A stretch of 64,000 nucleotides of DNA from an uncultured Actinomycetes bacterium (lineage in GTDB: Bacteria > Actinomycetota > Thermoleophilia > Gaiellales > Gaiellaceae), in assembly GCA_963742635.1 (NCBI GenBank), contig CAVUMW010000019.1, positions 270,479-334,478 on the forward strand, given 5' to 3'. The notes under the pieces were generated by a model that saw only the letters and a list, made by a program, of their open reading frames with translations, did no database searches and had not been told where the DNA came from. Numbering within the stretch: the first letter of the stretch is position 1; every line of letters begins with the position of its first letter. The position numbers and the translations under genes are program-made. Below, in pieces: positions 42,058 to 64,000 of the stretch.

Positions 42058-42945
42058 TCAGCTAGCCCGTCGGAGCTGCTCTTCGACCTGGCGGTAGGCG
42101 GACGACTCCGGCGGAAGCTTGCCGAGGGCTGCGGTGAGGAGGCTGTCGGCGTCTTCGTCGCGGCCCTGGCGGCGGCGGACAGAGGCGAGGTTTGCGATCA
42201 CCTGGCCCTCGTGTTCCTCGTCGCCGAGCTCCCTGAGGAGGACGAGCGCCTCCTCGAACTGCTGAACCGCCACTGCGACGCCGCCGGTATGAACGAGAGC
42301 AAGAGCCAGGTTGTTGCGCGTCAGCGCCTCGGCCCGCCGGTCACCGAGCTCATGCAGGATCTCGAGCGCGGCCAGATGCTGCTCGGCTGCCTGCTCGCGG
42401 TTGCCCTCGCGTCGAAGCTGCGCCCCGAGCTCGTTGAGCCGGCGCGCCTCGCGGTGCCGGTCGGCCGCGGTTGGTTCCCTCCGGCGAGCCTCGACGACGG
42501 TCCGGGCCCGATGGGCCGCGATGTTCGAGATCCGGCGCCGGTGCTGGTCGAGGTCGAGCTCACCGATCCGCGCCTCGACCGCGCGTGAAGCCCTCTGCAT
42601 CGACACGAGGGAAGCTCGCAGTCGTTCTCCCAGTCCGTAGCGGCGAACGAGCCAGCGCCCCGCCGCCAGGAGACCTCCGACGAGCACGAGGGCAAGGGAC
42701 GCGACCAGGACGGTCGTGAACCCGAGAGCCGCCAGCATTCCGGCCAGCAGGAACCAGATTCCGGTGAACGCGAGCACGCGCCTGCGCAGCTGCTCGGGGT
42801 CGGCTGACCGCTCGAACGGTCGAGGCCAGGACACTGGATACCTACGGGCTGATGGGCTCATCGAGGGGTCCTCCTTCCGAGCCGCGACTGTTCGCCGCCG
42901 CCATGGAGGTTCCTCCCAGACGACCGTCGCAAACACGGTGCTCAC
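42058..42945 (-). CDS. Membrane-anchored TPR-repeat protein
   Basis: Two TM helices (FTGIWFLLAGMLAALGFTTVLVASLALVLVGGLLAAG) followed by TPR-like repeats (AEQHLAALEILHELGDRRAEALTRNNLALAL...). An internal ATG (MSPSARRY) is an alternative start. Confidence 0.6.
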   Translation of the reverse strand: MSTVFATVVWEEPPWRRRTVAARKEDPSMSPSARRYPVSWPRPFERSADPEQLRRRVLAFTGIWFLLAGMLAALGFTTVLVASLALVLVGGLLAAGRWLVRRYGLGERLRASLVSMQRASRAVEARIGELDLDQHRRRISNIAAHRARTVVEARRREPTAADRHREARRLNELGAQLRREGNREQAAEQHLAALEILHELGDRRAEALTRNNLALALVHTGGVAVAVQQFEEALVLLRELGDEEHEGQVIANLASVRRRQGRDEDADSLLTAALGKLPPESSAYRQVEEQLRRAS

Positions 42946-42972
42946 CCGGCAGACGCGCGGGCGAAGAGCCTC

Positions 42973-45900
42973 TTACTTGAACCGGAAGTTGGCGCGCTTC
43001 TCGGCGCCGTCTTTCAGGCGCACGACGAGCTGGCGGCATCCCCGCCAGGTGCCGTCGGTCTTCCAGACGTACTTGTACTGGTCGAGCAGCGGGTCGTACG
43101 TGAACCCGTCAGGGCCGAGTATCGTCGGGACGAGCGGCCCGGTCACAGGGCCCCCGCAGGTCATTGCCTGGCTGGCCGGATAGCCCGGCGCAAAGATGTT
43201 GAGACCCCGGAAACCGGAGAGGCTGAACTTGATCGGAACAGCGCTGCCCGCGTTGGCGTCGTTGACCGCCGGCAGGTTGTTGATCGGGGAGAAGAAGCCG
43301 GTGAAGGAGTACGCCGTCACGCGGTAGGTCAGGGGGCCGTCGAACACGTGGCCGGCTCTATCCACGGCGTGCGCGTGGATCGTCTTCGTCCCGGCCGAGC
43401 TCGTATCGAGGGGATCCGGGACGGTGCAGGAGTCGATCCCGGAGCCCGAGTCCGCGCAGTTCGCGTGCGCGACCGATCCGAAGCCGTACGTCGTGTTCAC
43501 CGTCACCGTCGGGTTGGACTCGTCGATCGGAATGGTCAGCGATCCATGAGAGCCGTCACTGCCCTGGAAATCCAGCGAGTGGACGCCGGTTCCGTCGACG
43601 GAGAGCGAGGTGCCGGGCGTGAAGGCCGCGCCGTCGAGGCTGTAGCTGATGCCCGGCGCGCCGCTGATCGTCACCGAGACAGCGCCCGTGAACCACCCGT
43701 TCGCCTGCGGGCCGGTCGCATGCGCTTGGATGTCGCCGGTCGGCGGTGGCGTGACGACCGACTTGAGGAACGCCTTGTTGCTGGTGACTGCGACGTTCCC
43801 GGAGCCGTCGACGGCCTGGATGATCCATTCGACGTCGTTACCGGACAGCGGCCCTGCGCCACTCCAGCGGGGCGAGCTGTGCGACATCTCGATCGACTTC
43901 CAGACCCCGCTCGCGTCCTTGTAGAGCGCGAGCACTCGCTTGACACCGTTCGCGCCGCCGACGTCGTCCGTCACGTCGACGGCGAACGCGACCGTCGTGT
44001 CCGCCTTCGTGACCTCGACGGGCCCGAAGCTCGACGGCGTGAAGTCGGTGACGCTCGGGGCCGTGTAGAAGACGTTGCCCGAAAGCGCCGTGAAGCGCCG
44101 CTGGATGCCGACTCCCTGCGGCTCGAACGTGCTGTCGCTTCGGAACTGCCCGCTGAAGAGCACGAGCCGCTGGCGCGTGCCGTTCGGAGTCGCGAGCGAG
44201 GCGATCGACTGCAGCTTCGTCGGGTAGCTGACGTCACCGACCAACTCCGGCGTGAACGCCGAGAAGTCGTCGATGACGCGGCTGAAGGCTGCGTCGAAGT
44301 TGGCCTCGTCGGTCGAGGTGAGGGCGGTGAGCAGCGCGCCGTGCGCCACGAGACCCGGCTCTGTGACGTCGAGCTTCGTCGTCGGCTCGATCGGACGGCG
44401 ATTCTCGGCGAACGCGTCGTCCGAGACGTAGTAGCTGCCGATGGCGGTGTCGACCCTGGTGAAGCTCGGCGAGACGTTGAAGGGCGCGGTCGGCAAGCCG
44501 GTGGCCGAGTCCGTCGTCGTCACCGCCGGAGTGGGTGGCGCAGGCGTGGCCCCGGTGCCGACCCTGTACATCGGCAGGCCCATCAGGTTGGCCTCGTCGA
44601 TCACCTTGAGGTGGTATCCGCTCTGGGTCGGAGTCGCCGCGTACTCCTGCTTCGCGAAGGCGAGCGCCTGGCCGACGGTCATCGAGCCGTCGAGCCGGTC
44701 GGCGAACAGGACGTTCAGCTTCTCCGTGTAGAGCACAGCCGCGGTGTCGCCGAGCCCGTAGCCCGTGTTGCCCATGAAGTCGACTGCCCCGCTCTGGGCG
44801 TATGACTGTGCCCAGTCCGCGCTGAGCGAGTTGCCGAAGACGAGGTCCGACACCGGCAGAGCCGAATGACATCCCATCGTGAAGATGACCCGCCCACTCG
44901 TCGAGCGGCCCGCGAGATCGGCGGTCGTGTAGAGGATCGTCTCGCGCTGCGCGGCGTTCTCGTCGGCCGGCAGGGCGCGGCCATGGTCGTAGTGCGCGTT
45001 GATCGAGTCGAGAATCGGCGGGTTCGACGTAGGGAACATCGCCGCCAGCAGGTCGTTCTTCGACCAGGAGTTGTTGATCAGCTCCTGGGCGTTGTTCGTC
45101 CCCAGCCTGGCCTTGAAGTCCGCCGAGACCCGCGACGCGCCGTCCGAGAGGAAGTCGTAGCCGGTTGTCAACGCCCTCGTCGGGTTGATCGCGCCGTTCC
45201 GGTTGATGTACTGGGTGATCTGGTCGCGGATCTGGTTCGGCGTCTCGACCAGCCGCCCGACCGCGAGCTCGGGGACATATGGCCCCTGGCCCGAGTAGTT
45301 GACGTCGCCTAGCGGATCGTCGGTCGGCAAGAAGCCGAGCCCGTACGTGCTCAGGTACTGGTTGTTCGTGGCGCCGAAGAACGTGCTCGCGTACCCGCGC
45401 TCGTTCGCGTACGCGGAGTTGTCGAGCACGCGCCCGAACGGAACGCCGGCGGCGTCGTCGCCCACGACGACGATGTACTTGACCGACGGCCGGACGATCA
45501 GCGGGTTGTCGAGCAGGTTGCCGACGGCCCGCACGACGTCGTTGGCCTTCGCCGGCGAGCAGGAGTCCGTGGCGCGCGCGTTGAGGGCGTTCAGGACGGC
45601 GGTGTTCGCGTCGACCGGGATCACCGCGCCGCCTGCCGCGTCCGATCGCGCCGCAAGTGTCTGCAGCCGGCTGAGGACGTCGTTCTCGGCCTGGAGCCCG
45701 TAGAGGTCGCCGAAGCGCTTCGAGGCGAAGAGATAGAGGGTGCTTGCGGTCGTGGGCACGGCCGGCATCGGCTTGGTGACGCCGGTGCCGGGGCCCTGTG
45801 GGTTGGTGCACGTCGGCGGCAGGGCGATCGAAGGCGATCGCTCGATCCGCAGCACCCACGGATCGTTGCTGTAGCCCCCGTCGAAGCTCGCGACCTGGAT

Positions 45901-48900
45901 CGTGTACGTCCCGCCCTCGGGTGAGACCGCTGACACTTCCTCGTCGGCGAGGCCGCGGTTGTCCGACACGTCGAGCGCGGCCTGTCCGTTGACCGCGTCC
46001 TGCGGAACGTCGGTGAGCGCCTCGGGCGTGATCGACTGCGTGCGCTGGCCGAGCTCGAACGGGACGTCGCCCGCGGAGGGCGACTCGGCGCCGGGGTGCG
46101 GCGTCCGGAGCGGTGCGATGCCCGGCCCGTAGATGACGAGATCGTCGTCCACCTTCAGGTGGCTGAGGTGGATCGTCAGCTGCTCGCCCGGATTGGCATG
46201 GACCTGGAAGTAGTCGCGGTCGGAGCCGCTCGACGTGTACCCGAGGTAGAGCGTGTCGGGCTGCGCGGGCTGCGCGGTGTCGGGCTGCCCGTTCGCGGGC
46301 TCACCAGGCTCGGTGATCTGCGTGCTCGCGGCCTCCGGGCGCCTGGACGGTGCCGTTGAGGCCGGTCGCCGCGATCTTCGCGGTCGCCGACTCGGTTCCC
46401 AGGCTGAGGCCGGGCTTCGCGTGGAAGGTGAGCTGGTAGCTCGTGCCGAGCTCCACGTTGGTGAGGTGCCAGTTGAGCTCGTTCTCGGGTGACCTCAGCG
46501 TCGGCTCGTCGACCGTGCCCGGCCCGCCCGAGAGCTGCGTCGAGCCCGACACGTATCGGGCATCCGCCCCGACGTGAACGGCGACCGAGCCGTCGACCGG
46601 CGGCCCCGCTCCGTTGAGCTGGAACGAGACCGTGTACGTCGCCGTCCCTCCGTCCGTTGAGAAGTCCTGGAGCGGGAACCCGGGTAGCGGGAGCTGCTCC
46701 CAGTCGTACGCGGTCTTCAGGAGGACGGTGGCGAGCAGATCCTCGCTGCGTCGAGCGGCGGCAGTCCCGCACGAGAGTCCTTGAGCGCTGATGTCCTGCC
46801 CGCTCGCGTCCTTGAGTAGCGGATGCTGGTCCTGGAGTTCGCGGTCTCCTTTATCGCGCCAGCGGCCTTGGCCTGAGCGAGCGTGTCCGTGTCCGCGCAC
46901 AGGAAGTTGCCGGTCGGCTCGAAGCGACTGCGGGATCAGGCCGAGCGTGATGCCGCCGAGCGGGGACGCGTTCGGCTTGTCGTCACCGCCAGCGGAATGC
47001 CGCCGAGCGGAGTGCCCACGAGATCGATGCCGGCCCAGAGGAATGCCGCCGAGCGGCGTGCCGACGCGGATGCCGCCGAGCGACGCCCCGAGCGGGATGC
47101 CTCCGAGCGGGATGCCCCCGAGGGGAATGCCGACCAGACGCCCTGCAAGGCGAGCCCGAGCATCGTCTGTTGGCCGAGGCTCTGGCCGTTCGGCGCGGAC
47201 CCCGGCTGCTGGTTCACGCACCGGCACCAGTCGGTGAGGTTCTGATCCGGCGGCGTGCCCGCGATGCCGCCGAGCGGAATGCCTCCCAGCGGCAGCCCCG
47301 GCGAGCGGAATGCCGCCGAGTGGGCTCGACGCGAGATTGAGCTTGTCGAGCGTGATCCCGGCGACGACCTGCGTCCCAAGCACCTGCGCGAGCGTCACGT
47401 TCTGAGGCGGAGTGCCCTTGCAATGCTGCGGCTCGACGCCGAGGTGCGCCTCCCACGTGTCCGGCAGCACGAGCGGGACGTCGACGACAGCGAACCCCGC
47501 CGGAAGGCGGTTCTGGCTCAGGTTCTCCGCCGGCAGCCGATCCCGCCCACGGAATGCCGCCGAGCGGGATGCCGCCCACAGGAATTCCTCCGAGCGGAAT
47601 GCCGCCCAGTGGGATGCCGCCGAGGCGCGCCGCCGTCGTCTGCGACTGGCCGCGGATCGCGTCGAGCGGGATGTCGTCGATTGGAGCAGAGGCGGCGCCC
47701 GGGTCCGAGCTCTCAGGCCCCGCAATCGAGATCGACGCGGTCAGGCTCGAGGGGGTCGGCCCCCAGTCGGGGAACGAGTTCCGTCCGCCGATGCCCGTCG
47801 TCAGGTTGACCTGGCCCGAGCCGTCCGCCAGCGCGGTCCAGACGTTGAAGTTCTGTCCATGCGTCGCGGACGAACGCGATGCGCGCGCCGTCCGGAGACG
47901 AGCTCGGGTCGGCGTCGAAGATGTCGCGTTCGGCCAGGTCGACCTGATCGGAGCCGCCGCCTGGTCAGCGTCCACACCGATCCGAACGGTCCCGCGCGGT
48001 CGCTGAAGAACGCGATTCTGCCCATCGGGCGACCAGTCCGGATCGGAGTCGCGCGCGGCGTGTCAGCTGTCGCGACCCTGTTCCATCCGAATTCTGCCGG
48101 TAGATCTCTTCGTTCCCGTCGTGCTCGACATGAGGCCGAGCTGCGTGCCGTCCGGAGACCAGGAAGGGCTGGCCTCGTTCGCCGCCGTGTTGGTCACGTC
48201 CACGGGAGTGCCTCCGGTCGCGTCACGATGAAGATGTCGTACTGTCGATGACGCTGCCCTGGAAGGCGATCTTCGTCCCGTTCCGGCGACCAGGCCGGCT
48301 GCTGCTCAGGCCGGGGATCGGTGGGGCCAGCTGCGTGAGGCCCTGCTGCTTCATCACCCAAGCATGTTGGAGGTTCCGCCCCTGGTCGCTTGAGAAGGCG
48401 ACCTTCCTCCCGTCGGGCGAGATCGAGGACAGGTTGTCGGTCAGCTCGTTGGCGCAGACCCGTCCGCGTTCTCGAGTAGATCTCGAGGTTGCCGTCGCGG
48501 TTCGACTCGAAGACGATCCGCCGGCCCTGCCAGGAGCCGCCGAGAGCGTCAGTATCCGCCCAGTCGCTGGGGGCGAATACGGCCCCCGGGTACATGAAGC
48601 CTGTTCCGCCGAGGACGTACATGAGGTCGAGGCCGACCGTGTCGCCGGAGCGAGGCAGAAGTCGTGCGCCGGTGCTCGTCGCAGGAGAGCATGCTGACAA
48701 CGTCACCTCTGAGCCGAGGACCGGCTCCCACGTCGTCGGTGCCGTCGCCGGCCGGGTCTCGTTCCGTCGTTGGTGTCCGCGTACGTGGCTCCTGGCAGCT
48801 GGTGTTGCTGTAGTAGAGTCGGCGCCGAACTGCGTAGAAGGGCGACGCGGAGCCTCCTCGCCCGGGTCCTGGTCCGTTGTGGTTCGCTCGTTGAAGAAGG

Positions 48901-49183
48901 CGCCCATCTCCTTCGAGCCGCCCGAGAGGTCCGTCACCGTCATGGCGACGTAGAGGAACCCGGCGTTCGCGCTGAACCTCGCCGAGCCCGTCGAACGTGA
49001 CGTCGTAGTGGGCGGCGTCTGTTCATTGCTGTCGCCGATCACCGTCGATGGTGGGCGTGGTGGCCGCGGGCGGCGACCGCCTGGAAGTCGATTGGCGGGA
49101 CGTGCGGCGCGCTTGCGCAACCCCTGGAGCGCCAGTGCCAGTGCCCCGATGACGCCAACGACGAGCCGCAGCTGATTCCTCAT
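42973..49183 (-). pseudogene. Left-arm copy of the giant secreted PD40 / GGIPL-repeat / PPC / C25-like peptidase protein; N-terminal ~2.4 kb heavily frameshifted
   Basis: ATG at 49,181-49,183 (MRNQLRLVVGVIGALALA). Between ~46,745 and 49,183, recognisable pieces (AGFLYVAMTVTDLSGGSKEMGAFF, RIVFESNRDGNLEIYS, EQQPAWSP) alternate between frames every 20-100 codons. There is one further frameshift at ~46,320. The last 1,059 codons (42,973-46,152) form one intact ORF. Confidence 0.75.
46936..47625 (-). repeat. Degraded blocks of 15-bp (P-L-G-G-I) tandem repeats inside the left-arm giant gene
   Basis: Three blocks (~46,936-47,131; 47,262-47,320; 47,537-47,625) of GATGCCGCCGAGCGG-like units on the + strand. 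Confidence 0.7.
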
Positions 49184-49275
49184 GAGGAACAACCCCCAGG
49201 ACGTTAGTAAGTTCGGCTCGCTTTTCAAAGCCCGGGCGTCCTTTCGATCGGCGGCGCGAAGGCGTACCCTCGGCC

Positions 49276-52200
49276 ATGGACGCGCAGGGCGATGCACCCT
49301 TCGAGCCGTACCTCCCCCGGCTGCTCCAGCCGGCGGCACGAGCGCCGGACGTGCGCTGGCGAGAGAGAACGACGGCTCACTCGTCTCGGTCGACCTCTCC
49401 CGATCACCGCGCTTGCGGCTTCAGGCAAGGGGCCGGGGCGGGTGCAGAGGAGCTCGTCCTGGCGATCAGCGGCGTGTTCGAAGGCCGTCCGGATCGCGAA
49501 CCGTCGGCGGGCGACACCCTCAAGTTCCGGGGGAGGCGCTCCTGATTCTTCTCCGGCGACGCGCACGCCGAGCGAGCCTGCCGCGCGGCCTCTTGAGATG
49601 AGTGGTTCATCGAGCGTACGGAGACGATGAGCTCCGTCGGCGAGGTGAACCTCCGGATGTCCACCGGCATTACTCGGGGACCTGTCACTTCTTCCTGGTG
49701 GAATCGAGCCACCGCGAGTGCTCGCGGGGCCCCGCCGCGACTGCCACGATCCAGCTCGAGGACGAGTCCGCTGGCGAGGTTCTCTCGCTCAGCCCCGGCG
49801 CCCAGCGGCTGCCGCGGGTTGGTCCCGATTGGCTTGCCTTGCCGAGCGGCGCTGCTCGCGCTCGACCGCGAGCCGGACGCCGCGGCCCCGCCGGTCGTCG
49901 AGGACGACGGCCGGCGTCGTGGTCCTCGAGCTCGAGCCGTTCGTCCCGATCGCGCTTCGCTCCTACCTGCGGCTCGAGGTGGCCGAGGCGGAGCACCGGC
50001 AGGTCACCGCCTGCTTTCGCGGAAGTTCAGCGGCGAGGCGGTGCTGCTCCGGACAGCCAGGACCAGCCGCATGCTCCTGCAGGCTCTCACATCGTGGGCC
50101 GTGTGTCCGGAGTCGGGCTGACCTGGCTGCAGTTGCATGTTGCACGGGCAGCTTCACCTGGCCGCCGGCCGTTCCCCTCGACTGACTGGGGCCGATGAGG
50201 AGCAACCGCTGCGGATGCGTGATCTCGACGAGGTATCCGCCCTGACGTCCGCGGCGGGCGTCCACCGTGCACGCCTTCGCCGGTGACATCGGCGCCAGCG
50301 CTCGCCGTACCCACGCCGTCATGGGCGACACCGTCAATCTCGCCGCACGCGGCCGCGCGGGCGAGCCGGGGGAGATCCTCGCTACCGCCGAGGTGCTCGA
50401 GCGCTCGCCGACCCGCTTCAGTACTGCACCGCAGCCGTTCCTGGTCAAGGGCAAGGAGCGAGCGATCACCGCGTACAGCGTCGGCGCCTGCTCACCGGTG
50501 TCGCGGAGGGGACGAGCCTCAGGAGCTGCCGATCATCGGTCGCGAACAGAGCTGGCGGAGCTCCAGCGCGCTCGCCGGCGTTCGCGGTTGCGCCAGGGCC
50601 AGGTGGCCGAGCTCGTCGGCAAGTCGCGTCGTCGAGGAGCTGAAGACGATGACCGTCGGCTTCACGCAGCTCGTCGCGCGCTGTGACCAGTACGGACGTC
50701 CGTCTCCGCTCGCTGCTCCGCCCGCTCGCCGGAATCACCGATGCGGAAGCCCCCGCCGGACGCGGTTCTGAAGCCCTGGATCGAGGCGGTCATGCCCCAA
50801 GTGGCTGCCGCTGTCTTGCGATTCCGTCGCACGCGGAAGTGCGCATGACGCCGGAGACCGAGGAGATCGAGTGGCGTTCCGTCGCGAGCGTGCTTCCAAG
50901 ACGGTCGAGGAGTTCCTGCTCCGCGTGCTGGCGGCGGCCCACGCTCATCGTCTTCTATAGAGCGCACTGGATCGACGACGCCTCGCACAGCGTCCTCCTC
51001 CATCTCGTGCGCAGCAGCGCCCCGCGGCCCTGGCTCGTGGCGATCACGCGCCTGCCGCAGGGCTTCGTTCGACGAGCCCGGAGACGGCAGCAGGTGCCTG
51101 GACGTCGCGGCGCTCCCCGGCGCAGGAGGTCGCGCTCGCGGCCGCCGGAGAGGTCGCCCTTTCCGAGGAGTGTCGGGCGAGGTGTCCGAGCGCTCGGGCG
51201 GCAACCCGCTCTTCGCGCCGAGCTCGTCGTGCTTCCGGGCCGACGGTGGCGTTGCCGCGCTGCCGGAGACGGTGGAAACGCTGATCACGACGCGGATCGA
51301 CACGCTCGAGCCGGGCGATCGTTTTCCTCCCAACGCCTCGGTCCTCGGGCCCATTCGCAGCTCGACCTACTCGCCGACGTGCTGGCGGACGAGCTCGCGG
51401 ACGAAGCGGCATCCTGCAAGTGCCGGCGCCCACTCGGGGAGTTCGCGGCCTGGGAGGGGACGAACGAGCTGGCCGGTTCCGGCAGATCCACCCCCTTCCG
51501 GACGGTCGCGTACGAGGTAGTTTCTTTTCCGTACTTCTACGGCGTCGGCACCGTGCTGGAATCCCCGCGCCGGTCAGCAGGCTCCGTCGAGCTCGCACCT
51601 CTCCGCTCCAGGTCACCGTGAGGACTACCAGCGGGCCTGGCGCTACTCCGTCGCCGTCGGCCAGCTGGCGCAGCACCGGCTTCGAACGTCGATGCCGCCG
51701 AACTTCCAGCGGGTGCTCGCCGCCCGCCTGCAGCACCTCCGCCGCTCGAGGTGGCGCATGTTGCCGAGGCGCTCGGGGACGTCTGCCAGCTCGCGGCGCG
51801 GTACGAGGAGGCCGGGGATGCGTATCGCCTCGCCCGCGAGCGGGCAGCGGACGGGCTCGTGCAGTCGCGCCTCATGCGCAAGGAGGGGATCTGCGATAGT
51901 GTCGGCAGCTATCCCGAGGCGCTCGAGTGGTATGGCTGTGGGGCTGCAGGCGCTGAGCCCCAGGCCCACAACGGGCTGCAGGGCCGTGTCCAGCTCGAAG
52001 GTATTCGATTGCAGGCGGCAGAGCACGCCGAGCTGGCCGGCGGATCGCGCCGCGCTGGACACGCCTACTCCCACCGCGCGTCAATCACATCTCGCTGGGC
52101 GAAAAGGATGAACCGCCGAGCACGCTCGTCTTGCGCTCCCGATGCTCGAGGAAGCGGAGACCTCGTTCTCCAGTCCAACGTCGTCAATATCGAATCGAGG

Positions 52201-52835
52201 CGTATTACGCCGGGCGCTGGGACGAGGCGTCCGAGCTGTATCGGAAGAGCGGCGAGCTGAGCGAGCGAGTGGGCGACGTGGTCAATGTGGCCCGCGCGCA
52301 CAGGTGAGATCGTCGTGGGCAAGCTCGACGAAGCCGAGGCGCTGTTCTGAAGCTCGGCACGGTGTGGCGCGCGGCTCGGTACCCGGGTGGGCATCGCGCT
52401 CGCGACCTCGAACCTCGGCCGGGTCGCCGCGCGGTCGCTTCGACGAGTGCTCGTGGGGCGCTGACGTCCAGGGGCTCGGCTCGGATGCCCTCGGCCAGGA
52501 GACCCGGGCCCGGCGCGCCGAGTGCTTCGCTGGCGGGGCGCTTCCAGGAGGCCCTGGACCTCGCGCTGACCGTGCTCGAGGCGGCCGGGGAGAACCGGCT
52601 CCTCTACCCCTTCCTCGAACGGCTCTACGGTTATGCCCTCGTCCAGGCGCGGCGGCCGGGGATGAGGCGCGCCCGCGCTTCGAGCGGAGCCTCGACCTGG
52701 CCGCGAGCTCGAGGCCGACTATGAAGTTGGGCTGACGTCTGAGGATGCCGAGGCGACCCTGACGTCGAGGTGGAGAGCAACGCGATCCTCGAGCGCCTCG
52801 GCGTCGTCTCGACGCCACGTGTGCCGCTGCCCTGA
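49276..52835 (+). pseudogene. Left-arm copy of adenylate/guanylate-cyclase-AAA(STAND)-TPR protein, extensively frameshifted
   Basis: Starts MDAQGDAPFEPYLPRL and ends ...ILERLGVVSTPRVPLP with a TGA at 52,833-52,835. In between, only short in-frame islands match the right-arm copy. Confidence 0.7.
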
Positions 52836-52839
52836 CGCA

Positions 52840-52904
52840 TTGCCCCGGCATGAATCGGCACGCGGTTTAGGAAACCGCCGCTCTATGCACTGAGCTACAG
52901 GGTC
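52840..52904 (-). pseudogene. Mirror copy of the tRNA-Arg(CCT)-like element with a T-arm deletion
   Basis: Reverse complement of the 56,510-56,581 element, but GCATGTTCGATTCATGC is reduced to GCCGATTCATGC. Confidence 0.45.
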
Positions 52905-53006
52905 TTACACGGCCACGACAGCCGAGCTTGTTCACCGTTGCCGGGTCCACCGCGTGTTTTCAGATCGCTCACGAATCCCTTGCACCGGATCGCTACGGTC
53001 GGCGTT

Positions 53007-54680
53007 GTGCGACGGCTTCTCCTCGTCGCTGTTTCCGCTGCCGCGGCGGCTGACCGGCGATGCGGCGCCGCGATTGCCCGGGGCGCATCGTCTTCGCGAG
53101 CGAGCGCGGTTCGACGCTCGAGAACACCGGCATCTACTCAGTTCGCACGGACGGCTCCTCCCACCCCGGACACTCGTACGCAATCCGGGTGGCGGTGCGG
53201 CGGCGCGGACGTGGTCACCGGGGATGGCAAGCTCCTCGCCTTCTGGAGCGAGGGACCCCCCCCAGCCGAGGCGGCCACGGCGCGCGGCCACGTGCTTCGC
53301 CGCCTCACTCCGCGCGGGCTTGTCGCCAGCCGCCGACCGACCCGCCGAGCTGGTCACTCGGCGGTCGAAGCGTCGCCTTCTCCGGCGAGCGCGGATCACA
53401 ACGTGGCATCTGGGCCGTTGCTAGGGACGGAACACATCTCCGGTTTCTCTCGCCCTGGGGCTTGCGCCCGTGTGGCCACCCACGGGAGGCGTGATCGCGT
53501 TCGGCTCGGGCCACATCTTCGTCATTTCGGCCAGAGGAGGGAGGGCCCGGCGTATCACGACTGGACCCTTCGACTCGAGCCCCGCCTGGGTCGCCGGACG
53601 GCAGGACGATCGCGTTCGTCCGCTCCGACTCGAACGGCGTGGTTCAATCGATCGATCTCGTTTCCGCCTCCGGCGGCATCACCACCGCCGTCTCTTCCGT
53701 GGGCGGGACGTGGACATCGGTCGGACTCCCCAGTGGTCGCCCTTGGGCGGCTGGTCGCGTTTGAGGCGAGGTCGAGCGTCTACGTCGTGCGCGTGCGAGA
53801 TAAAGCGCTGAGCAGGCTGCGACGCAACGGCCTATTTAGGCCCGACGGCAGGCATATCGCGTTCACCTCCTGGGTCCGGCGTGTACGTGATGAATGCGGA
53901 CGGCTCCCGTGTCCGACGCGTGATGACGAGCGGGGGTTCGAATTTCAGCGATGGACCGGCGTGGTCCCGACGGCCGCACGCTCGTCTATTCCCTGACACT
54001 GCTCCAGAGCGACTTCGAGATCTTCACGGTCGGGCCGACGGCTCCGGGCTCCGACAGCTGACTGAAATCGGCGAGGACTGGATGCCCGCGCGGTCTGAAG
54101 CCGACGGACGATCGCCTTCGTCCGGCGCGGAGTGATCTGACGATGGCCGCGACGGGATGCGGCCAGCGCCGGCGGTTCTTCCAAGGCATGCAGCCTTCGT
54201 GGTCCCGAACGGCATCAACGACGGTTCGGGCGTGAGCATCCGCTCGGTGAACGGTGGCCCCGGCGCCGCGGAGCGATCGGTTTCAGCCCGGGGTACTTCG
54301 CCTGGCGGGTGGCGAGATCGCGATCGTGCGCGAGCGGCCCGCTTCGCGGTAAAGTCGCGACCGGAGTCGAGCGGACGATCGCCGACGCTTCGACGATCTG
54401 CCCGCCGGGGAACGAAACGTCGATCGCGGTTCCGGGGGACTGGCTGCGACGCCGAGCAAGCTCGTATTCGCCGTCGTGTGCGGCATGACGGTCGGTTCGC
54501 CCTCGACCTCGGCGGAGATCGTGTTGGCCGACGGAACTGGCCTCAGGGCGCTCCCAATCGATGGGCTCGACACCGGCTGGTCGCCCGACGGTACGCGAGT
54601 CGCCTTCGTCGCGGAAAGCGAGCGCCTGCGCATCGGGACGAGCAGGCTCGACGGCACCGGCCGAACGGCTGTCGTCAGAG
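53007..54680 (+). pseudogene. Left-arm copy of the PD40 (TolB-like) repeat protein, frameshifted and cut at the palindrome centre
   Basis: A GTG start gives VRRLLLV.... It aligns to the reverse complement of 54,682-56,404, with clustered indels (for example a 6-nt deletion at the signal peptide, extra G and CC, and a ~20-nt deletion). Confidence 0.7.
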
Positions 54681-54681
54681 T

Positions 54682-56404
54682 CTCTGACGACAGCCGTTCG
54701 GCCGGTGCCGTCGAGCCTGCTCGTCCCGATGCGCAGGCGCTCGCTTTCCGCGACGAAGGCGACTCGCGTACCGTCGGGCGACCACGCAAGTCGGGCCGTG
54801 TCGAGCCCATCGATTGGGAGCGCCCTGAGGCCGGTTCCGTCGGCCGACACGATCTCCGCCGAGGTCGAGGCGAACCGACCGTCGTCGCACACGACGGCGA
54901 ACACGAGCTTGCTCGCGTCGGACGACCAGTCCGGAACCGCGATCGACGTTTCGTTCCCCGGCGGGCAGATCGTCGAAGCGTCGGCGATCGTCCGCTCGAC
55001 TCCCGTCGCGAGACTGACCGCGAACAGGCTCGCTCCGCGCACGAACGCGATCTCGCCACCCGCCGGCGACCAGGCCGGGCTGAAACCGGCCGCGACCCGG
55101 CGCGCGGGGCCACGGTTCACCGAGCGGATGCTCACTCCCGAACCGTCGTCGAAGGCCAGCTGTATGCCGTTCGGGGACCACGAAGGCTGCGTGCCTTGGA
55201 AGAGCCGGCGCTGGCCGCTCCCGTCGGCGGCCATCATCCAGATCACTCCGCGCCGGACGAAGGCGATCTTCCGTCGGCTTGCAGACCACGCCGGCATCCA
55301 GTCCTGCACCGAGTTTCGAGTCAGCTGTCGGAGCCCGGAGCCGTCAGCCCCGACCGTGAAGATCTCGAAGTCGCTCTGGAGCAGCGTCAGGGAATAGACG
55401 AGCGTGCGGCCGTCGGGGGACCACGCCGGTCCATCACTGAACTCGAACCCCCGCTCGGTCCTCACGCGTCGGACACGGGAGCCGTCCGCATTCATCACGT
55501 ACACGCCGGACCCAGATGTGAACGCGATGTGCCTGCCGTCGGGTGACCACGTGGGCCAGTCGCCGGTGCGTCGCAGCCTGCTCAGCGCTTCATCTCGCAC
55601 GCGCACGACGTAGACGCTCGACCTCGCCTCGAACGCAATCAGCCGCCCCGAGGGCGACCACTGGGGAGTCCGACCGATGTCCACGTCCCGCCCACGGAAG
55701 AGACGGCGGTGGTGTCCGCCGGCGGCGGAAACGAGATCGATCGATTGAACCACGCCGTTCGAGTCGGAGCGGACGAACGCGATCGTCCTGCCGTCCGGCG
55801 ACCAGGCGGGGCTCGAGTCGAAGGGTCCAGTCGTGATACGCCGGGCCCTCCCTCCTCTGGCCGAAATGACGAAGATGCGGCCCGAGCCGAACGCGATCAC
55901 GCCTCCCGTGGGTGACCACACGGGCGCGAATCCGTCGCGGGCGAGAAACCGGAGATGTGTTCCGTCCCTAGCAACGGCCCAGATGCCACGTTGTGATCCG
56001 CGCTCGCCGGAGAAGGCGATGCTTCGACCGCCCGGTGACCAGCTCGGCGGGTCGGAGTCGCGGCTGGCGACAAGCCCGCGCGGAGTCAGGCGGCGAAGCA
56101 CGTGGCCGCGCGCCGTCATCAGAAAGAGGCCTCGGCTGGTGTCGCCGGGGGCGGAGTGCTCGCTCCAGAAGGCGAGGAGCTTGCCGTCCGGTGACCACGT
56201 CGCGCCGCCCGCACCGCCGCCCGGATTGCGGACGAGTGTCCGGTGGGAAGAGCCGTCGGTGCGAACTGAGTAGATGCCGGTGTTCTCGAGCGTCGAACCG
56301 CGCTCGCTCGCGAAGACGATGCGCCCGGGCAATCGCGGCGCCGCATCGCCGGTCGTCGCCGCGGCAGCGGAAACGGCGAGCAGGACGAGGAGAAGCCGTC
56401 GCAC
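54682..56404 (-). CDS. PD40 (TolB-like) beta-propeller repeat protein, 3' end replaced by the palindrome
   Basis: GTG start (VRRLLLVLLAVSAAAATTG signal). 574 uninterrupted codons with more than 10 'WSPDG..IAF' PD40 repeats. Past nt 54,681 the 795-aa track ORF reads antisense of its own mirror copy. Its annotated N-terminus (to 56,602) overlaps the tRNA-like element. Confidence 0.7.
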
Positions 56405-56509
56405 GACGCCGACCGTAGCGATCCGGTGCAAGGGATTCGTGAGCGATCTGAAAACACGCGGTGTGGACCCGGCAACGGTGAACAAGCTCGGCTGTCGTGG
56501 CCGGTGTAA

Positions 56510-56581
56510 GACCCTGTAGCTCAGTGCATAGAGCGGCGGTTTCCTAAACCGCGTGCGCATGTTCGATTCATGCCGGGGCAA
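56510..56581 (+). tRNA. tRNA-Arg (anticodon CCT)-like element, imperfect
   Basis: Manual fold: D arm GCTC-AGTGCATA-GAGC. Anticodon arm GCGGT-TTCCTAA-ACCGC. Variable GTGC. T arm GCATG-TTCGATT-CATGC. Acceptor GACCCTG/CGGGGCA pairs at only 5 of 7 positions, and the D-loop GG is GC. Confidence 0.5.
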
Positions 56582-56585
56582 TGCG

Positions 56586-59500
56586 TCAGGGCAGCGGCAC
56601 ACGTGGCGTCGAGACGACGCCGAGCCGCTCGAGGATCGCCTTGCTCTCGGCCTCGGTGTCCGGGCCGCCGAGGCGTGTTCGGCCGAGTGCCTCGAGCGTC
56701 AGCGCCACTTCGTAGTCGGCCTCGAGCTCGCGGGCCAGCTCGAGGCTCCGCTCGAAGCGCGGGCGCGCCTCGTCCGGCCTGCCGCGCCTGGACGAGGGCA
56801 TAGCCGTAGAGCCGTTCGAGGAAGGGGTAGAGGAGCCGGTTCTCCCCGGCCGCCTCGAGCACGGTCGGCGCGAGGTCCAGGGCCTCCTGGAAGCGCCCCG
56901 CCAGCACGAAGCACTCGGCGCGCCGGGCCCGGGTCTCCTGGCCGAGGCGCATCCGAGCCGAGCGCCTCGAACGCCGTCAGCGCCCCGGCGAGCAGCTCGA
57001 GCGCCTCGTCGAAGCGACCCGCACGCGCGGCGACCCGGCCGAGGTTCGAGGTCGCCAGCGCGATGCCGACGCGGGTACCGAGCGGCGCGCCAGACACGTC
57101 GAGCTTCGGAGAACAGCGCCTCGGCCTCGTCGAGCTGTCCCTGATCGGAGACGATCTCGCCCTCGTTGTTCTGCGCGCGGGCCACGTTGACCACGTCGCC
57201 CACGCGCTCGCTCAGCTCGCCGCTCTGCCGGTACAACTCGAACGCCTCGTCCCAGCGCCCGTCGTAATACGCCTCGATGCCGAGGTTGTTGACGACGTTC
57301 GACTGGCGGACGAGGTCGCCGGCTTCCTCGAGCATCGGCGAGCGCAAGGCGGGCGTGCTCGTCGTCCTTCTCGCCCAGCGAGATGTGGTTGACGTGCAGC
57401 AGGAAGTAGGCGTGTGCGAGCGCGGCGCGATCGTCGGCCAGCTCGGCGTGCTCTGCCGCCTGCGAGCTCCAGTGGATGCCCTCCGTCGAACTGGCCCTGG
57501 CGGTACTTGACGCCGGCGGTCGCAAGCTCGAGCTGGACACGGCCCTGCAGCCCGTTGCCGGCTGCGGCCGAGTCGTCCAGCGCCTGGAGCCCCGGCCGTA
57601 CCATCGAGCGCCTCGGAATAGCGGCCGAGACGCTCGCGCAGAATCCCCTCCTTGCGCATCAGGCGCGACTGCTCGAGCCCGTCCGCAGCCAGCTCACGGG
57701 CGAGGCGATACGCATCTCCGGCCTCCTCGTACCGCGCCGCGAGCTCGCACACGTCACCGAGCGCCTCGGCGACGTGCGCCACCTCGAGCGGCGGCAGCTC
57801 GAGGTGCTCGGCGGCGGCGAGCGCGCGCTCGAACAGCTCGGCGGCGTCGATGTTCGCGAACCGGTGCTGCGCCAGCTGGCCGACGGCGACGGAGTAGCGC
57901 CACGCCCGCTCGTGGTCCTCCGCGTGCAGAAAGTGGAGCGAGAGCAGGGCCGCGACCTCGTCGGAGCCCTGACCGGCGCGCGATCCTCGAGCGCCGTGCC
58001 GACGCGCCCGTGGATCTCGCGCCGGCGGCGGAACGACAGCCCCTCGTACGCGATCGCGCGGAAGAGGTCGTGCCGGAACGCGCAGCGTCGCCGTCCCCTC
58101 CCAGGCCGACGAACTCGCCGAGCCGGTCCCAGCGCTCCAGGTCGCCGACGTCCGTCGAGCTCGTCCGCGAGCACCTCGGCGAGCAGGTCGAGCTCGAACC
58201 GGGCACCGAGGACGGAGGCGTAGCGCAGCAGCATCCGGTCGCCCGGCTCGAGCGTGTCGATCCGCGTCGTGATCAGCGTCTCGACCGACTCCGGCAGCGC
58301 GTCGACGCCGCCGTCGCGCCCGGGAGGCCGCGACGAGCTCGCGCACGAAGAGCGGGTTGCCGCCGGAGCGCTCGGACGAGCGTCGCCCAGCAGGTCCTGC
58401 GCGAGAGGGCGACGTCTCCGGCGGCCGCGAGCGCGAGCCGGGCGGTCGCCTCGCCGGGGAGCGGCCGCGAGCTCGAGCACCCGCTGCCCGTCTCCGGGCT
58501 CGTCGACGAAGGGCACGGCCCTGCGGCCGGCGCGTGACGCACACGAGCCACGGCCGCGGGGCGCGTGCTGCGCACGAGATGGAGGAGGACGCGTGCGACG
58601 CGTCGTCGATCCAGTGCGCGTCCTCGATGACGATGAGCGTCGGCATCATCAGCACGCGCGAGCAGGAACGCCTCGACCGTCTTGCAGACGCGCTCGCGAC
58701 GGAACTGCCGGCTCGATCTCCTCGGTCTCCGGCGTCATCGGCACTTCCGCGTCGAACGGGATCGCGAGCAGCGGCAGCCACGGCGCGAGGTCGGGCATGA
58801 CCGCCTCGATCCAGGGCTTGAGCTGCGCGCCGGCCTCCGCGGGCTCTCCGCATCGGCGTGATCCCGGCGAGCGGGCGGAGGAGCGTCGCGGAACGGCGAA
58901 GTAGGGCGACGGACATCCCGTACTGGTCGCAGCGCGCGACGAGCTGCTTGAAGCCGACGGTCATGCGTCTTCAGCTCCTCGACGAGGCGCGACTTGCCGA
59001 TCCCCGGCTCGCCGACGAGCTCGACCACCTGGCGCTGGCGCATCCGCGCCGCCGTCGACCGCCGCGTGGAGCTCCGCCAGCTCCGCGTCGCGGCCGACGA
59101 TCGGCAGCTCCTGAGCTCGTCTCTGCCTCCGCGACGCCGGTGACGGCGCCGACGCGGTACGCGGTGATCGCTCGCTCCTTGCCCTTGACGAGGAACGGCT
59201 GCGGCTCGGTCTCGAAGCGCGTCGGCGAGCGGTCGAGCACGTCGGCGGTCGCGAGGATCCCGCCCGGCTCGGCGCGCGCGGCCAGCCGCGCGGCGAGGTT
59301 GACGGTGTCGCCCATGACGGCGTACGTGCGGCGAGCGCTGGCGCCGATGTCGCCGGCGAAGACGGGGCCGCGGTTGACGCCCGCGCGGAGCGTCAGGGCG
59401 GAGCCCTCGTCGAGGATCGCGCGCAGCGCCCGCAGCATTCGCTCCTCGTCGGCCCCGGTGGTCGACGGCGCGCCGGCGGTCAGGTAGAGCTTGCCCGCCG

Positions 59501-60414
59501 TCGACGTCGATGTCCGACTCGAGCCAGGTCAGCCCGAGCTCCGACGGTCACACGGCCCACGATCGCGGCGAGCGCGTCGAGAGCCTCGGCGACCGCGTCT
59601 GGTCCCTGCCGTGCGAGCAGCGCGTCGACGCCCGTGAACTTCACGAAGGCGACCGTGACCTGCCGGTGCTCGGCCTCGCCGGCCTCGAGCCGCAGGTGGG
59701 CGCGAAGCGCGATCGGGACGTACGGCTCGAGCTCGAGGTCCGCGGACGGTCGGCCGTCGTCCTCGACGACCGGCGGGGCCGCGGCGTCCGGCTCGCGGTC
59801 GAGCGCGAGCAGCGCCGCTCCGCCCCGCTCGCCGGCGAGCCAGTCGGGATCGACCGCGGCAGCGGTCGCGGCGCTGACGAGAATCTCGCCGGCGCCGGAC
59901 TCGTCCTCGAGCCGGATCGTCGCGGTCGCGGCGGGCCCCGCGACGATCAGCTCGCGGTGGCTCGACTCGACCAGGAAGAAGTGGCAGGTGCCGGAGTAGA
60001 CGCCGGTCGACATCCGGAGCGTTCACCGGCGCCGACGGAGCTCATCGTCTCCCCGGTGCGCTCGATGAACCACTGCATGTCGACGAGGCCGCGCGGCAGG
60101 CGCGCTCGGCGTGCGCGTCGCCGGAGAAGAGAATCAGCAGCGCGTCGCCGCGGAACTTGAGCACGTCGCCGCCGTGGCGGTTCGCGATCCCGATCAGGCC
60201 CTCGAAGACGCCGCTGATCGCGAGGACGAGCTCCTCCGCGCCCGCCCGGCCCCTCGCCTGCGAGCCGCTCGGAGAGCGCGGTGAAGCCGGAGAGGTCGAC
60301 CGAGACGAGTGAGCCGTCGAGCTCGCGCCAGCGCTCGTCCGGCGCACGTGCCGCCCAGTCGAGCACGAGCCGGGGGAGATACGGCTCGAAGGGTGCATCG
60401 CCCTGCGCGTCCAT
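56586..60414 (-). pseudogene. Right-arm copy of double-cyclase-AAA(STAND)-TPR protein, about 15 or more frameshifts
   Basis: In-frame islands of 20-170 aa follow one another in order. They run MDAQGD...VSVDLSGFTALSERLA, then GRAGAEELVLAISGVFE...DVLKFRGDALL, then a second cyclase domain GVNRGPVFAGDIGASARRTYAVMGDTVNLAARL. Next comes the P-loop LVGEPGIGKSRLVEEL, then TPRs, ending ...ILERLGVVSTPRVPLP. Confidence 0.75.
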
Positions 60415-62147
60415 CGCCGCCCGAGGGTACGCCTTCGGGCCGTCGATCGAAAGGACGCCCGGGCTATGAAAAGCGAGCCGAACTTACTAACGTCCTGGAG
60501 GGTTGTTCCTCATGAGGAATCAGCTGCGGCTCGTCGTTGGCGTCATCGGGGCACTCGCACTGGCATTGGTGCTCCCCGGGGTTGCGCAAGCGCACCACGT
60601 CCCGCCAATCGACTTCCAGGCAGCCACCGCGGCGACCACGCCCACCATCGACGGGGTCATCGGCGACGGCGAATGGACGGACGCAGCCAGCTACGACGTC
60701 ACGTTCAACGGGCTGCCGGGAACGGCGAGGTTCAAGCACGACGCCGGGTTCCTCTACGTCGCCATGACGGTGACGGACCTCTCGGGCGGCTCGAAGGAGA
60801 TGGGCGCCTTCTTCGACGACAACCACGACGGGATCAAGGACCCGGGCGAGGACGTGATGCTCGGGTTCGCGTCGCCCTTCTCGTTCGGCGCCGACTACTA
60901 CTACAGCAGCGCCGGCTCGTCAGGAGCCACGCATTACGCGGACACGAGCACCGACGGAACGAACCCGCCCGGCGACGGCACGGACGACATCGTGGGGGCC
61001 GGGCAGGTCGTCGGCTCAGAGGTGACGTTCGAGATGCGGCATCCACTCTGCTCCGACGACACCGCGCACGACTTCTGCCTCGCTCCCGGCGACACGGTCG
61101 GCGTCGACCTCATGTACGTCCTCAGCGGCACCGGCTTCATGTACCCGGGGGCGGATGCATTCGCCCCCAGCGACTGGGCGGATCTGACGCTCTCGGCGGC
61201 TCCGGCGCCGGCCGGGCGCATCGTCTTCGAGTCGAACCGCGACGGCAACCTCGAGATCTACTCGATGAACGCGGACGGGTCTGCGCCGACGAGGCTGACC
61301 AACGACCCGGCGACGGACGACCTCCCCTCGATCTCGCCCGACGGGAGGAAGGTCGCCTTCTCGAGCGACCGGGGCGGAACCTCCGACATCTGGGTGATGA
61401 ACATCGACGGCAGCGGCCTCACGCAGCTGACCTCCGATGCCGGCCTCGAGCAGCAGCCGGCCTGGTCGCCGGACGGGACGAAGATCGCCTTCCAGGGCAG
61501 CGTCATCGAGCAGTACGACATCTTCGTCGTCGATGCGACCGGAGGCACTCCCGTGGACGTGACCAACACGGCGGCGAACGAGGCCAGCCCTTCCTGGTCG
61601 CCGGACGGCACGCAGGTCGCCTTCATGTCGGACCGCGACGGGAACGAAGAGATCTACCGGCAGAATTCGGATGGAACGGGGTCAGCGACGCGGCTGACGA
61701 ACAACGCCGCGCGCGACTCCGATCCGGACTGGTCGCCCGACGGGCAGAAGATCGCGTTCTTCAGCGACCGCGCGGGGAGCCCGTTCGGATCGGTGTGGAC
61801 GCTGACCGCGGCAGACGGCTCCGATCAGGTCAACCTCACGAACGCGAGCATCTTCGACGCCGACCCGAGCTGGTCTCCGGACGGCACGCACATCGCGTTC
61901 GTCCGCGACGCGGGTGGACAGAACTTCAACGTCTGGACCGCGCTGGCGGACGGCTCGGGCCAGGTCAACCTGACGGGCATCGGCGGACGGAACTCGTTCC
62001 CCGACTGGGGGCCGACCCCCTCGAGCCTGACCGCGTCGATCTCGATTGCGGGGCCGGAGAGCTCGGACCCGGGCGCCGCCTCTGCTCCAATCGACGACAT
62101 CCCGCTCGACGCGATCCGCGGCCAGTCGCAGACGACGGCGGGCGCGC

Positions 62148-62237
62148 CACTCGGCGGCATCCCACTGGGCGGCATTCCGCTCGGAGGAATTCCTCTGGGC
62201 GGCATCCCGCTCGGCGGCATCCCGTTGGGCGGGATCG
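62148..62237 (+). repeat. 6 x 15-bp tandem repeat encoding (PLGGI)6
   Basis: CCACTCGGCGGCATC / CCACTGGGCGGCATT / CCGCTCGGAGGAATT / CCTCTGGGCGGCATC / CCGCTCGGCGGCATC / CCGTTGGGCGGGATC. The units differ only at synonymous positions. Confidence 0.9.
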
Positions 62238-62447
62238 GCTTCACGGCGGAGAACCTGAGCCAGAACGGCCTCGGCGGGGTTCCGCTGTCGTCGATCCCGC
62301 TCGTGCTGCCGGACACGTGGGAGGCGCACCTCGCGCTCGAGCCGGCGTTCAAGGGCACTCCGCCGTCAGAACGTGACGCTCGCGCAGGTGCTGGGGACGC
62401 AGGTCGTCGCCGGGATCACGCTCGACAAGCTCAATCTCGCGTCGAGC

Positions 62448-62522
62448 CCACTCGGCGGCATTCCGCTCGCCGGAATCGCCCTCGGCGGGCTGCCGCTGGG
62501 AGGCATTCCGCTCGGCGGCATC
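62448..62522 (+). repeat. 5 x 15-bp repeat encoding PLGGI-PLAGI-ALGGL-PLGGI-PLGGI
   Basis: Read in the frame entered after the 62,366 frameshift. Confidence 0.85.
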
Positions 62523-62650
62523 GCGGGCACGCCGCCGGATCAGAACCTCACCGACTGGTGCCAGTACGTGAACCAGCAGCCGGGGTTCACCTGCCCGAAC
62601 GGCCAGAGCCTCGGCCAACAGACGATGCTCGGGCTCGCCTTGCAGGGTGT

Positions 62651-62815
62651 GCCGCTGGGCGGCATTCCCCTCGGGGGCATCCCGCTCGGAGGCATCCCGC
62701 TCGGCGGCATCCCGCTCGGCGGCATCCCCGTCGGCACGCCGCTCGGCGGCATTCCTCTGGGCGGCATCAACCTCGTCGGGCACTCCGCTCGGCGGCATTC
62801 CGCTCGGCGGGATCG
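62651..62815 (+). repeat. ~11 x 15-bp repeat encoding (PLGGI)n with variants PVGT and NLVGT
   Basis: Units CCGCTGGGCGGCATT and similar. A 1-nt insertion at ~62,782 lies inside the array. Confidence 0.85.
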
Positions 62816-64000
62816 ACATGAGCCCGAACGCGTCTCCGCTCGGCGGCATCACGCTCGGCCTGATCCCGCAGTCCGCGAAGATCGCGATCTTCGACTGCCC
62901 GACCGGCAACTTCCTGTGCGCGGACACGGACACGCTCGCTCAGGCCAAGGCCGCCGGCGCGATCAAGCAGACCGCGAAGCTGCAGGACCTCGGCTACTAC
63001 AAGGACGCGAGCGGGCAGGACATCACGCTCAAGGACCTCGTGCGCGGACTGCCGCCCGACACGACGCTCGAGGATCTCCTCGCCACCGTCCTCCTGAAGA
63101 CCGCGTACGACTGGGAGCAGCTCCCGCTACCCGGGTTCCCGCTCCAGGACTTCTCAACGGACGGAGGGACGGCGACGTACACGGTCTCGTTCCAGCTCAA
63201 CGGCGCGGGGCCGCCGGTCGACGGCTCGGTCGCCGTTCACGTCGGGGCGGATGCCCGGTACGTGTCGGGCTCGACGACGCTCTCGGGCGGGCCGGGCACG
63301 TCGACGAGCCGACGCTGAGGTTACCCGAGAACGAGCTGAACTGGCACCTCACCAACGTGCAGCTCGGCACGAGCTACCAGCTCACCTTCCACGCGAAGCC
63401 CGGCCTCAGCCTGGGAACCGAGTCGGCGACGGCGAAGATCGCGGCGACCGGCCTCAACGGCACCGTCCAGGCACCCGAGGCCGCGAGCACGCAGATCACC
63501 GAGCCGGGTGAGCCCGCGAACGGACAGCCCGACACCGCGCAGCCGGCGCAGCCCGACACGCTCTACCTCGGCTACACGTCGAGCGGCTCCGACCGCGACT
63601 ACTTCCAGGTCCATGCGAATTCGGGCGAGCAGCTGACGATCCACCTCAGCCACCTGAAGGTGGACGACGATCTCGTCATCTACGGGCCGGGCATCGCGCC
63701 ACTGCGGACGCCGCACCCCGGCGCCGAGGCGCCCTCCGCGGGAGACGTGCCCTTCGATCTCGGCCAGCGCACGCAGTCGGATTCACACCCGAGGCGCTCA
63801 CCGACGTGCCTCAGGACGCCGTCAACGGCCAGACCGGCCTCGACGTCTCGGACAACCGCGGCCTCGCAGACGAGGAAGTGTCCGTCGTCTCACCAGAGGG
63901 TGGGACGTACACGATCCAGGTCGCGAGCTTCGACGGGGGCTACAGCAACGATCCGTGGGTGCTGCGGATCGAGAGATCGCCCTCGATCGCGCTGCCGCCC

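Follow-up and report, generated by a model that had tools for sequence, protein, structure and literature searches.

The right-hand part of a 64,000-nucleotide stretch of DNA from an uncultured member of the Gaiellaceae (the window: positions 270,479 to 334,478 of contig CAVUMW010000019.1, GenBank assembly GCA_963742635.1) reads as a long palindrome that turns on a single base and mirrors a block made up of a giant exoprotein gene, a cyclase-STAND gene, a tRNA and a PD40 gene. The question raised by this locus is whether the palindrome belongs to a bacterial chromosome or to the assembly that represents it. An earlier interpretation made from the letters of the window (the sequence-only reading) had proposed both answers, a fold-back assembly chimera and a genuine, probably recent inverted duplication. 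The evidence given below indicates that the palindrome is very probably an artefact of long-read metagenome assembly, produced from a fold-back (inverted-duplication) chimeric read in a strain-mixed assembly, and that the mirror repeat is almost certainly not a real biological feature, its value being practical, in quality control, rather than biological.

Symmetry of the inverted repeat

Sequence comparison confirmed that positions 54,578-54,680 are the exact reverse complement of 54,682-54,784 (103 nt, 100%) with a single unpaired T at 54,681, as the sequence-only reading had described, and this T is the turn-back point and symmetry centre of the whole structure. A repeat search of the window returned 47 collinear inverted segments, every one of them mirrored about 54,681, from the pair 45,815/63,999 inward. 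When the left arm (45,814-54,680) was aligned globally with the right arm (54,682-64,000) in reverse complement, 8,204 of 9,502 columns matched (86.3% identity), which bears out the claimed span of homology from 45,814 to the window edge. Mirror identity of this order between the arms is beyond the reach of chance. The arms are at least 9.3 kb long, the limit of 45,814 on the left being fixed solely by the window edge at 64,000. The perfect core of 103 nt is itself unexceptional, as other exact runs along the arms measure 125, 85 and 80 nt.

Differences between the two arms

On comparison of the arms, the imperfect palindrome of the sequence-only reading is not a pair of diverged copies but two readings of one locus of unequal quality. 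Aligned with each other, the arms differ by 480 substitutions and 377 insertion or deletion (indel) events, a ratio of ~1.3:1, and the indels are 1-2 nt long. Nearly all of the arm sequence is coding, yet 340 of the 377 indels are not multiples of 3 and break the frame. Relative to the other arm, 635 nt are missing from the left and 183 nt from the right. The indels reach a density of ~5 per 100 nt (one every 20-25 nt) abruptly at ~46,746 and hold it from there to the centre, so that the interior of the left arm (46,746-54,680) has the appearance of unpolished single-read sequence carrying garbled copies of four features. The codon-phase guanine-plus-cytosine (GC) signal, which is very strong in this genome of 70% GC, collapses over the same interval, from 0.85-0.96 over 1-46 kb to 0.74-0.84 over 46-54 kb, with the right arm intermediate. 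The unique, clean chromosomal part (1-45,813; strain S1), with its strong codon-phase GC, few indels against a close relative and full-length Pfam matches, provided the baseline of quality outside the palindrome.

Close relatives were found by scanning species-representative genomes with the C25 peptidase part of the exoprotein. The three used here (L002-L004) are Microflora Danica metagenome-assembled genomes made with metaFlye from Nanopore data and passed once through Medaka (PMC12313526), and a 1.34-Mb contig of one of them, L003, with 97% amino acid identity, served as the yardstick. Measured against L003, the unique part of the window (33.0-46.2 kb) shows 0-9 indel events per kb, the left arm from 46.2 to 52.9 kb shows 26-55, mainly missing bases, and the right arm from 60.5 to 64 kb shows 0-2. 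A further stretch of the right arm, ~57.5-59.6 kb, shows 14-21 events per kb, the 1-kb bins with these values spanning 57,546-59,566. This noisy stretch belongs to the very GC-rich cyclase-STAND gene and consists mostly of extra bases relative to L003; as a result, the gene is intact in neither arm.

A three-way alignment of L003 with the left and right arms was used to part real divergence from noise. Sites at which the arms agree with each other and differ from L003 lie at codon position 3 in 122 of 164 cases, a bias that marks these shared differences as real. In the interior of the left arm, by contrast, the substitutions that this arm alone carries show little preference among the three codon positions (130/142/197) and are for this reason essentially noise. 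The imperfection of the arms is sequencing noise and not evolutionary divergence, as expected of the two halves of a fold-back read. A pair of diverged paralogues, one of them pseudogenised, was considered and rejected, as the ~1.3:1 ratio, the 1-2-nt indels and a sharp onset of the differences inside a single gene are unlike pseudogene decay.

The PD40 gene, which encodes a TolB-like beta-propeller protein and contains the centre, allowed a comparison with four independent short-read metagenome contigs, L001 (ENA) and L016, L017 and L018 (JGI). The right-arm copy is 89.6-94% identical to these four and needs 0-2 gap openings to align with them, as against 11-50 for the left-arm copy (47-50 with L001 and L017). 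Because of this difference in gap openings, we regard the right arm as close to the true sequence and the left arm as a degraded reading of it.

A change of strain on the left flank

The outer left arm (45,814-46,745) is clean, still belongs to strain S1 and differs from the right arm chiefly by substitutions: across this overlap the arms show ~4% substitutions, and indel events number just 6 in 930 nt. Of the 26 substitutions unique to the left arm in the outermost 430 nt (45,808-46,239), 22 fall at codon position 3, and the right arm hardly departs from L003 there. Given this codon bias and the agreement of the right arm with L003, the left flank comes from a different strain or haplotype than the arms. 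The onset of noise at ~46,746 lies ~500 nt inside this clean zone of strain-type differences. The arms of a genuine duplication would be continuous with flanks of the same haplotype, and what was found here is a flank that differs at the ~4% level and then passes abruptly into noise.

The turn-back point in the PD40 gene

The centre lies inside the PD40 gene, and neither copy has a 3′ end, as the sequence-only reading had stated: the turn falls in the coding sequence 36 nt before the stop codon, and the alignments of L001, L016, L017 and L018 to both arms end at 54,680. Close PD40 homologues (86-91% identity) are all 586 amino acids long. All four contigs run on natively, reading ...CAGAG-ACGAGAGCGGCGCGGCGTACCTGGACCTCGACTGGTAG; the continuation begins ACGAGAGCGGCG after CAGAG, contains ...CAGAGACGAGAGCGG... 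past the turn and reaches ...TGGTAG, whereas the window reads ...CAGAG-T-CTCTGACGAC in its place. In L001, the intact PD40 gene is followed by a 76-amino-acid open reading frame (ORF), a GAF histidine kinase and a response regulator. The contigs that read through come from other populations and not from the same sample. Synteny with related genomes had been proposed as a check in the sequence-only reading, and L001-L004 contain no comparable inverted repeat. The breakpoint is thus without support in independent data on the locus, four contigs reading through it and the relatives lacking the repeat.

No insertion sequence (IS) element or repeat that could mediate an inverted duplication was found at the junction, and the native junction sequence of L001 (...CAGAGACGAGAGC...) contains no hairpin and offers microhomology of just 1-2 nt. 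A genuine duplication would be expected to have a mediating inverted repeat, IS element or short palindrome at this point, and the junction has none of them. A snap-back primed by a pre-existing hairpin was likewise rejected, there being no such hairpin in the native L001 sequence. Adapter sequences of Oxford Nanopore Technologies (ONT), PacBio and Illumina gave no match in the window beyond chance 8-12-mers, and none near the centre, where one unpaired T is all that separates the halves, in keeping with the little or no spacer or adapter of a fold-back read. The lack of an adapter remnant at the centre rules out a simple missed-adapter or 2D-hairpin read, and with it the missed hairpin adapter that the sequence-only reading had listed among the possible routes to a chimera.

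Origin of the palindrome

These results are best accounted for by a chimeric read that would have followed one strand of the locus, turned at what is now 54,681 and returned along the complement, and that the assembler would have taken as a path. Normal reads of the locus would then have polished the arm that they matched best, the right (54,682-64,000), bringing it close to the true sequence, and the return half, from the centre back to ~46,746, would have stayed at raw single-read quality, rich in deletions. The far end of this noisy half would have been overlapped at ~46,746 onto the well-covered contig of a related strain (1-46,745), which would give the order now seen in the contig: strain S1, the unpolished return half, the turn, and the true locus in reverse orientation. 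Of the two proposals of the sequence-only reading, the fold-back chimera is the one supported by the frame-breaking noise in one arm, by its abrupt onset and by the truncation of a conserved gene that reads through natively elsewhere. The symmetry, the noise-like and asymmetric differences, the abrupt onset, the strain-type outer overlap, the cut gene and its native continuation in other contigs are all direct observations. From them we infer that one chimeric read was the cause, and Nanopore sequencing with metaFlye assembly was presumably the platform.

Artefacts of this kind are well documented. Fold-back reads make up ~0.55-0.6% of ONT genomic DNA reads, where they are defined by halves at the same location, on opposite strands and with breakpoints within ~200 bp; the halves are separated by more than 11 bp in under half of the reads flagged as artefacts, and many of these reads slipped through adapter-trimming tools (Heinz, Meyerson & Li, BMC Genomics 2026, Breakinator; PMC12870357). 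Inverted-repeat chimeras account for 0.18-7.33% of reads from ligation libraries and are commoner among long reads (Xie et al., iScience 2026; PMC13141652). The palindrome resembles both in coming from one locus on opposite strands with coincident breakpoints, which here meet at one base over at least 9.3 kb (1 nt against the 200-bp criterion), and it shares with fold-back artefact reads the absence of intervening sequence or adapter and a turn whose position is arbitrary with respect to genes. Unlike raw fold-back reads, it is known after assembly and polishing, from the contig alone, its halves are unequal in quality, and one of them is grafted onto the contig of another strain.

Other systems are like it in part. 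Inverted self-complementary joins also arise in multiple displacement amplification (MDA) with phi29 polymerase, by strand displacement and template switching, but the displaced segments of MDA chimeras as a rule meet with an offset or deletion and not in base-perfect symmetry; the turn in the window is base-perfect, and nothing points to amplification of the sample. PacBio missed-adapter subreads and ONT 2D or unsplit template-complement reads give a template followed by its complement, as here, but leave adapter or hairpin sequence, of which there is none at the window centre. Genuine long bacterial palindromes, inverted duplications and hairpin telomeres have the same head-to-head geometry, and from these the window differs in having its junction in a conserved gene, in the lack of a mediating repeat or resolution site, in its other-haplotype flank and in a structure that is absent from all relatives examined.

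Some points weigh against a fold-back read as the origin. Support for the junction is inferred rather than measured from reads or depth, with the single-read-like quality of 46,746-54,680 as its sole proxy, and Nanopore sequencing with Flye is established for the closest relatives only and not for the window itself. An error of ~12-15% is high for a modern R10.4.1 read, and the account therefore calls for a read half of unusually low quality or a draft segment left without polishing. Unequal polishing of the arms could in principle befall a real palindrome too, the noisy stretch of the right arm at ~57.5-59.6 kb gets no specific account from the fold-back model, and the source contig was viewed only up to window position 64,000.

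An assembly error could also have arisen with no chimeric molecule or read at all, if the repeat graph had collapsed two strain haplotypes and joined them head to head. Such a purely computational mis-join would fit a source that is evidently a strain-mixed metagenome and the different haplotypes of the left flank and right arm in the clean overlap, and the source contig is 340,137 bp long, which leaves room for the palindrome to lie away from a contig end. We nevertheless consider it unlikely, as a mis-join alone would not make 8 kb of deletion-rich, single-read-like sequence, the noisy left sequence carries the variants of the right arm relative to L003 (171 shared sites), and a base-perfect, spacer-less turn inside a gene is the pattern of a fold-back read. 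The exact symmetry at the centre and the lack of an adapter would also suit a genuine inverted duplication of very recent date, in which one strain would carry on its chromosome a palindrome at least 9 kb long and without spacer that looks imperfect only through sequencing noise. It would have formed by replication-fork turn-back in the PD40 gene of one strain in a soil-type community (a Gaiellales-like actinobacterium of 70% GC) and been caught from very few reads, and noise alone cannot tell a real perfect palindrome from an artefactual one. This second proposal of the sequence-only reading is, however, very unlikely in view of the haplotype switch, the noise in one arm and the cut gene. With a left flank of another haplotype and an abrupt shift to noisy sequence, the contig offers no unbroken evidence for a palindrome within a single genome. 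A conserved gene of 586 codons is cut at the junction just before its stop with no IS element, repeat or hairpin to mediate it, the palindrome is missing from four independent populations and three related genomes, and the polishing reads were apparently drawn to one arm only. Long perfect palindromes are, moreover, unstable in bacteria through SbcCD cleavage and replication slippage.

Long reads that round the covalently closed hairpin telomere of a linear replicon, or a replicated dimer junction, would give just such a spacer-less fold-back, and yet an origin of this kind is extremely unlikely for the window. The turn lies inside the conserved PD40 coding sequence, which L001, L016, L017 and L018 continue to the stop and beyond, and it coincides with neither a replicon end nor a resolution site, there being no native palindromic resolution site at the junction. 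The flank is core chromosome, with glutamine synthetase, transketolase and cytochrome oxidase I, which speaks against the end of a linear plasmid or phage. In L003, the orthologous exoprotein-STAND block and its flanking region lie ~400 kb inside the 1.34-Mb contig, although without a PD40 gene beside the block. No telomere resolvase (protelomerase) was found among the 14 window ORFs scanned against Pfam, a scan of the window that was not exhaustive.

Consequences for the contig and for public databases

Under the fold-back account, the region from ~46.7 to 64 kb (~17 kb) is structurally invalid and its predicted proteins are untrustworthy, and the source contig past the window is possibly affected as well. 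The sequence-only reading had put the loss under an artefact at 9-18 kb of contig. Of the two arms, the left is unpolished noise, and the right, though joined in the wrong orientation to the contig of another strain, presents the true locus and is still usable as a reversed copy of it; the native 3′ end of the PD40 gene and all sequence downstream of it are missing from the contig.

One product of the junction is a gene call of the source record, P0006 (54,215-56,119, minus strand; 634 amino acids), which is identical to the window ORF running from MTARGHVL... to ...SRPNRR (NCBI/ENA). This protein crosses the centre and combines ~480 real PD40 residues with 154 residues of antisense read-through, and as a result an artefactual protein now stands in public sequence databases. 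The fragmented gene calls of the exoprotein and the STAND protein would pass for pseudogenes or novel short ORFs. The features described here also provide a recipe for spotting such artefacts without reads: the arms differ by frame-breaking indels, the codon-phase GC signal of one arm collapses, the haplotype changes where the noise sets in, and a conserved gene is cut short at the centre.

Gene content of the arms

The mirrored gene order given by the sequence-only reading was upheld by comparison with intact orthologues in L003, where the exoprotein is a protein of 2,111 amino acids with PD40 and Peptidase_C25 domains and the cyclase-STAND gene encodes a protein of 1,265 amino acids with Guanylate_cyc, AAA_16 and TPR domains (STAND-type). 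Outward from the centre, the right arm carries the PD40 gene (54,682-56,404, minus strand; Pfam PD40, 3e-40), of which ~575 of 586 codons remain before it is cut by the centre, a tRNA-Arg(CCT) (56,510-56,581, plus strand), and the moderately frameshifted cyclase-STAND-TPR gene (56,586-60,413, minus strand), whose largest ORF, 56,586-58,964, covers TPR domains only. Next comes the nearly clean exoprotein gene (60,503-64,000, plus strand; Pfam PD40, 4e-55), which runs off the window edge. The exoprotein is laid out as PD40 repeats, GGIPL repeats and then Peptidase_C25 past the window end. Its right-arm copy shares 95-99% identity with L003, at 0-2 indel events per kb, and the ORF is stopped at 62,821 by one frameshift. 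The GGIPL element is a tandem peptide repeat of about six copies at ~62,100-62,250 (plus strand), between the PD40 propeller and the C25 peptidase part.

The noisy left arm holds the same features in garbled form: the N-terminal half of the exoprotein (up to ~49,195, minus strand), the cyclase-STAND gene (~49,280-52,830, plus strand), a tRNA remnant (52,840-52,904, minus strand) and the PD40 gene (~53,007-54,680, plus strand). The tRNA-like elements of the sequence-only reading held good for the right arm, where ARAGORN called tRNA-Arg(CCT) and Rfam RF00005 matched 56,510-56,580 with 48.6 bits. The left copy is present only in degraded form, with 7 nt missing, and neither ARAGORN nor Rfam gave a call at 52,840-52,904.

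In both tRNA copies the acceptor stem is imperfect (5′ GACCCTG, 3′ CGGGGCA): it has two mismatches and lacks one G relative to the tRNA of L002, in which tRNA-Arg(CCT) is intact at 1458-1529. The shared defect could be either a common sequencing error from the same read or population or the mark of a decaying tRNA. Homology of the window to L002-L004 stops exactly at tRNA-Arg(CCT). In L003, two direct copies of the 3′ segment of this tRNA (310-333 and 2928-2951, plus strand) lie 2.6 kb apart and flank one cyclase-NB-ARC-TPR (STAND) gene, an arrangement that looks like a putative integration at the tRNA.

The flank from 1 to 45.8 kb codes for core chromosomal genes with full-length Pfam matches, among them GlnA (glutamine synthetase), transketolase, COX1 and ABC transporters. 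The 10-kb block of exoprotein, cyclase-STAND gene and tRNA (window 42,900-52,950) is absent from L001 (5527-5560), where the DinB/RNase_T block directly adjoins the PD40 gene, and in L017 the DinB block lies downstream of PD40; judged by gene order in these contigs, the neighbourhood is structurally variable among close relatives. In a homologue search for a mirrored second copy, the DinB protein of the window proved to be a member of a 211-member cluster. The RNase_T/GIY-YIG gene (38,666-40,343, minus strand) encodes 561 amino acids in L001 and appears split in the window into two overlapping ORFs (38,666-39,514 and 39,459-40,343), which suggests that occasional frameshift errors may occur even in the clean part of the contig.

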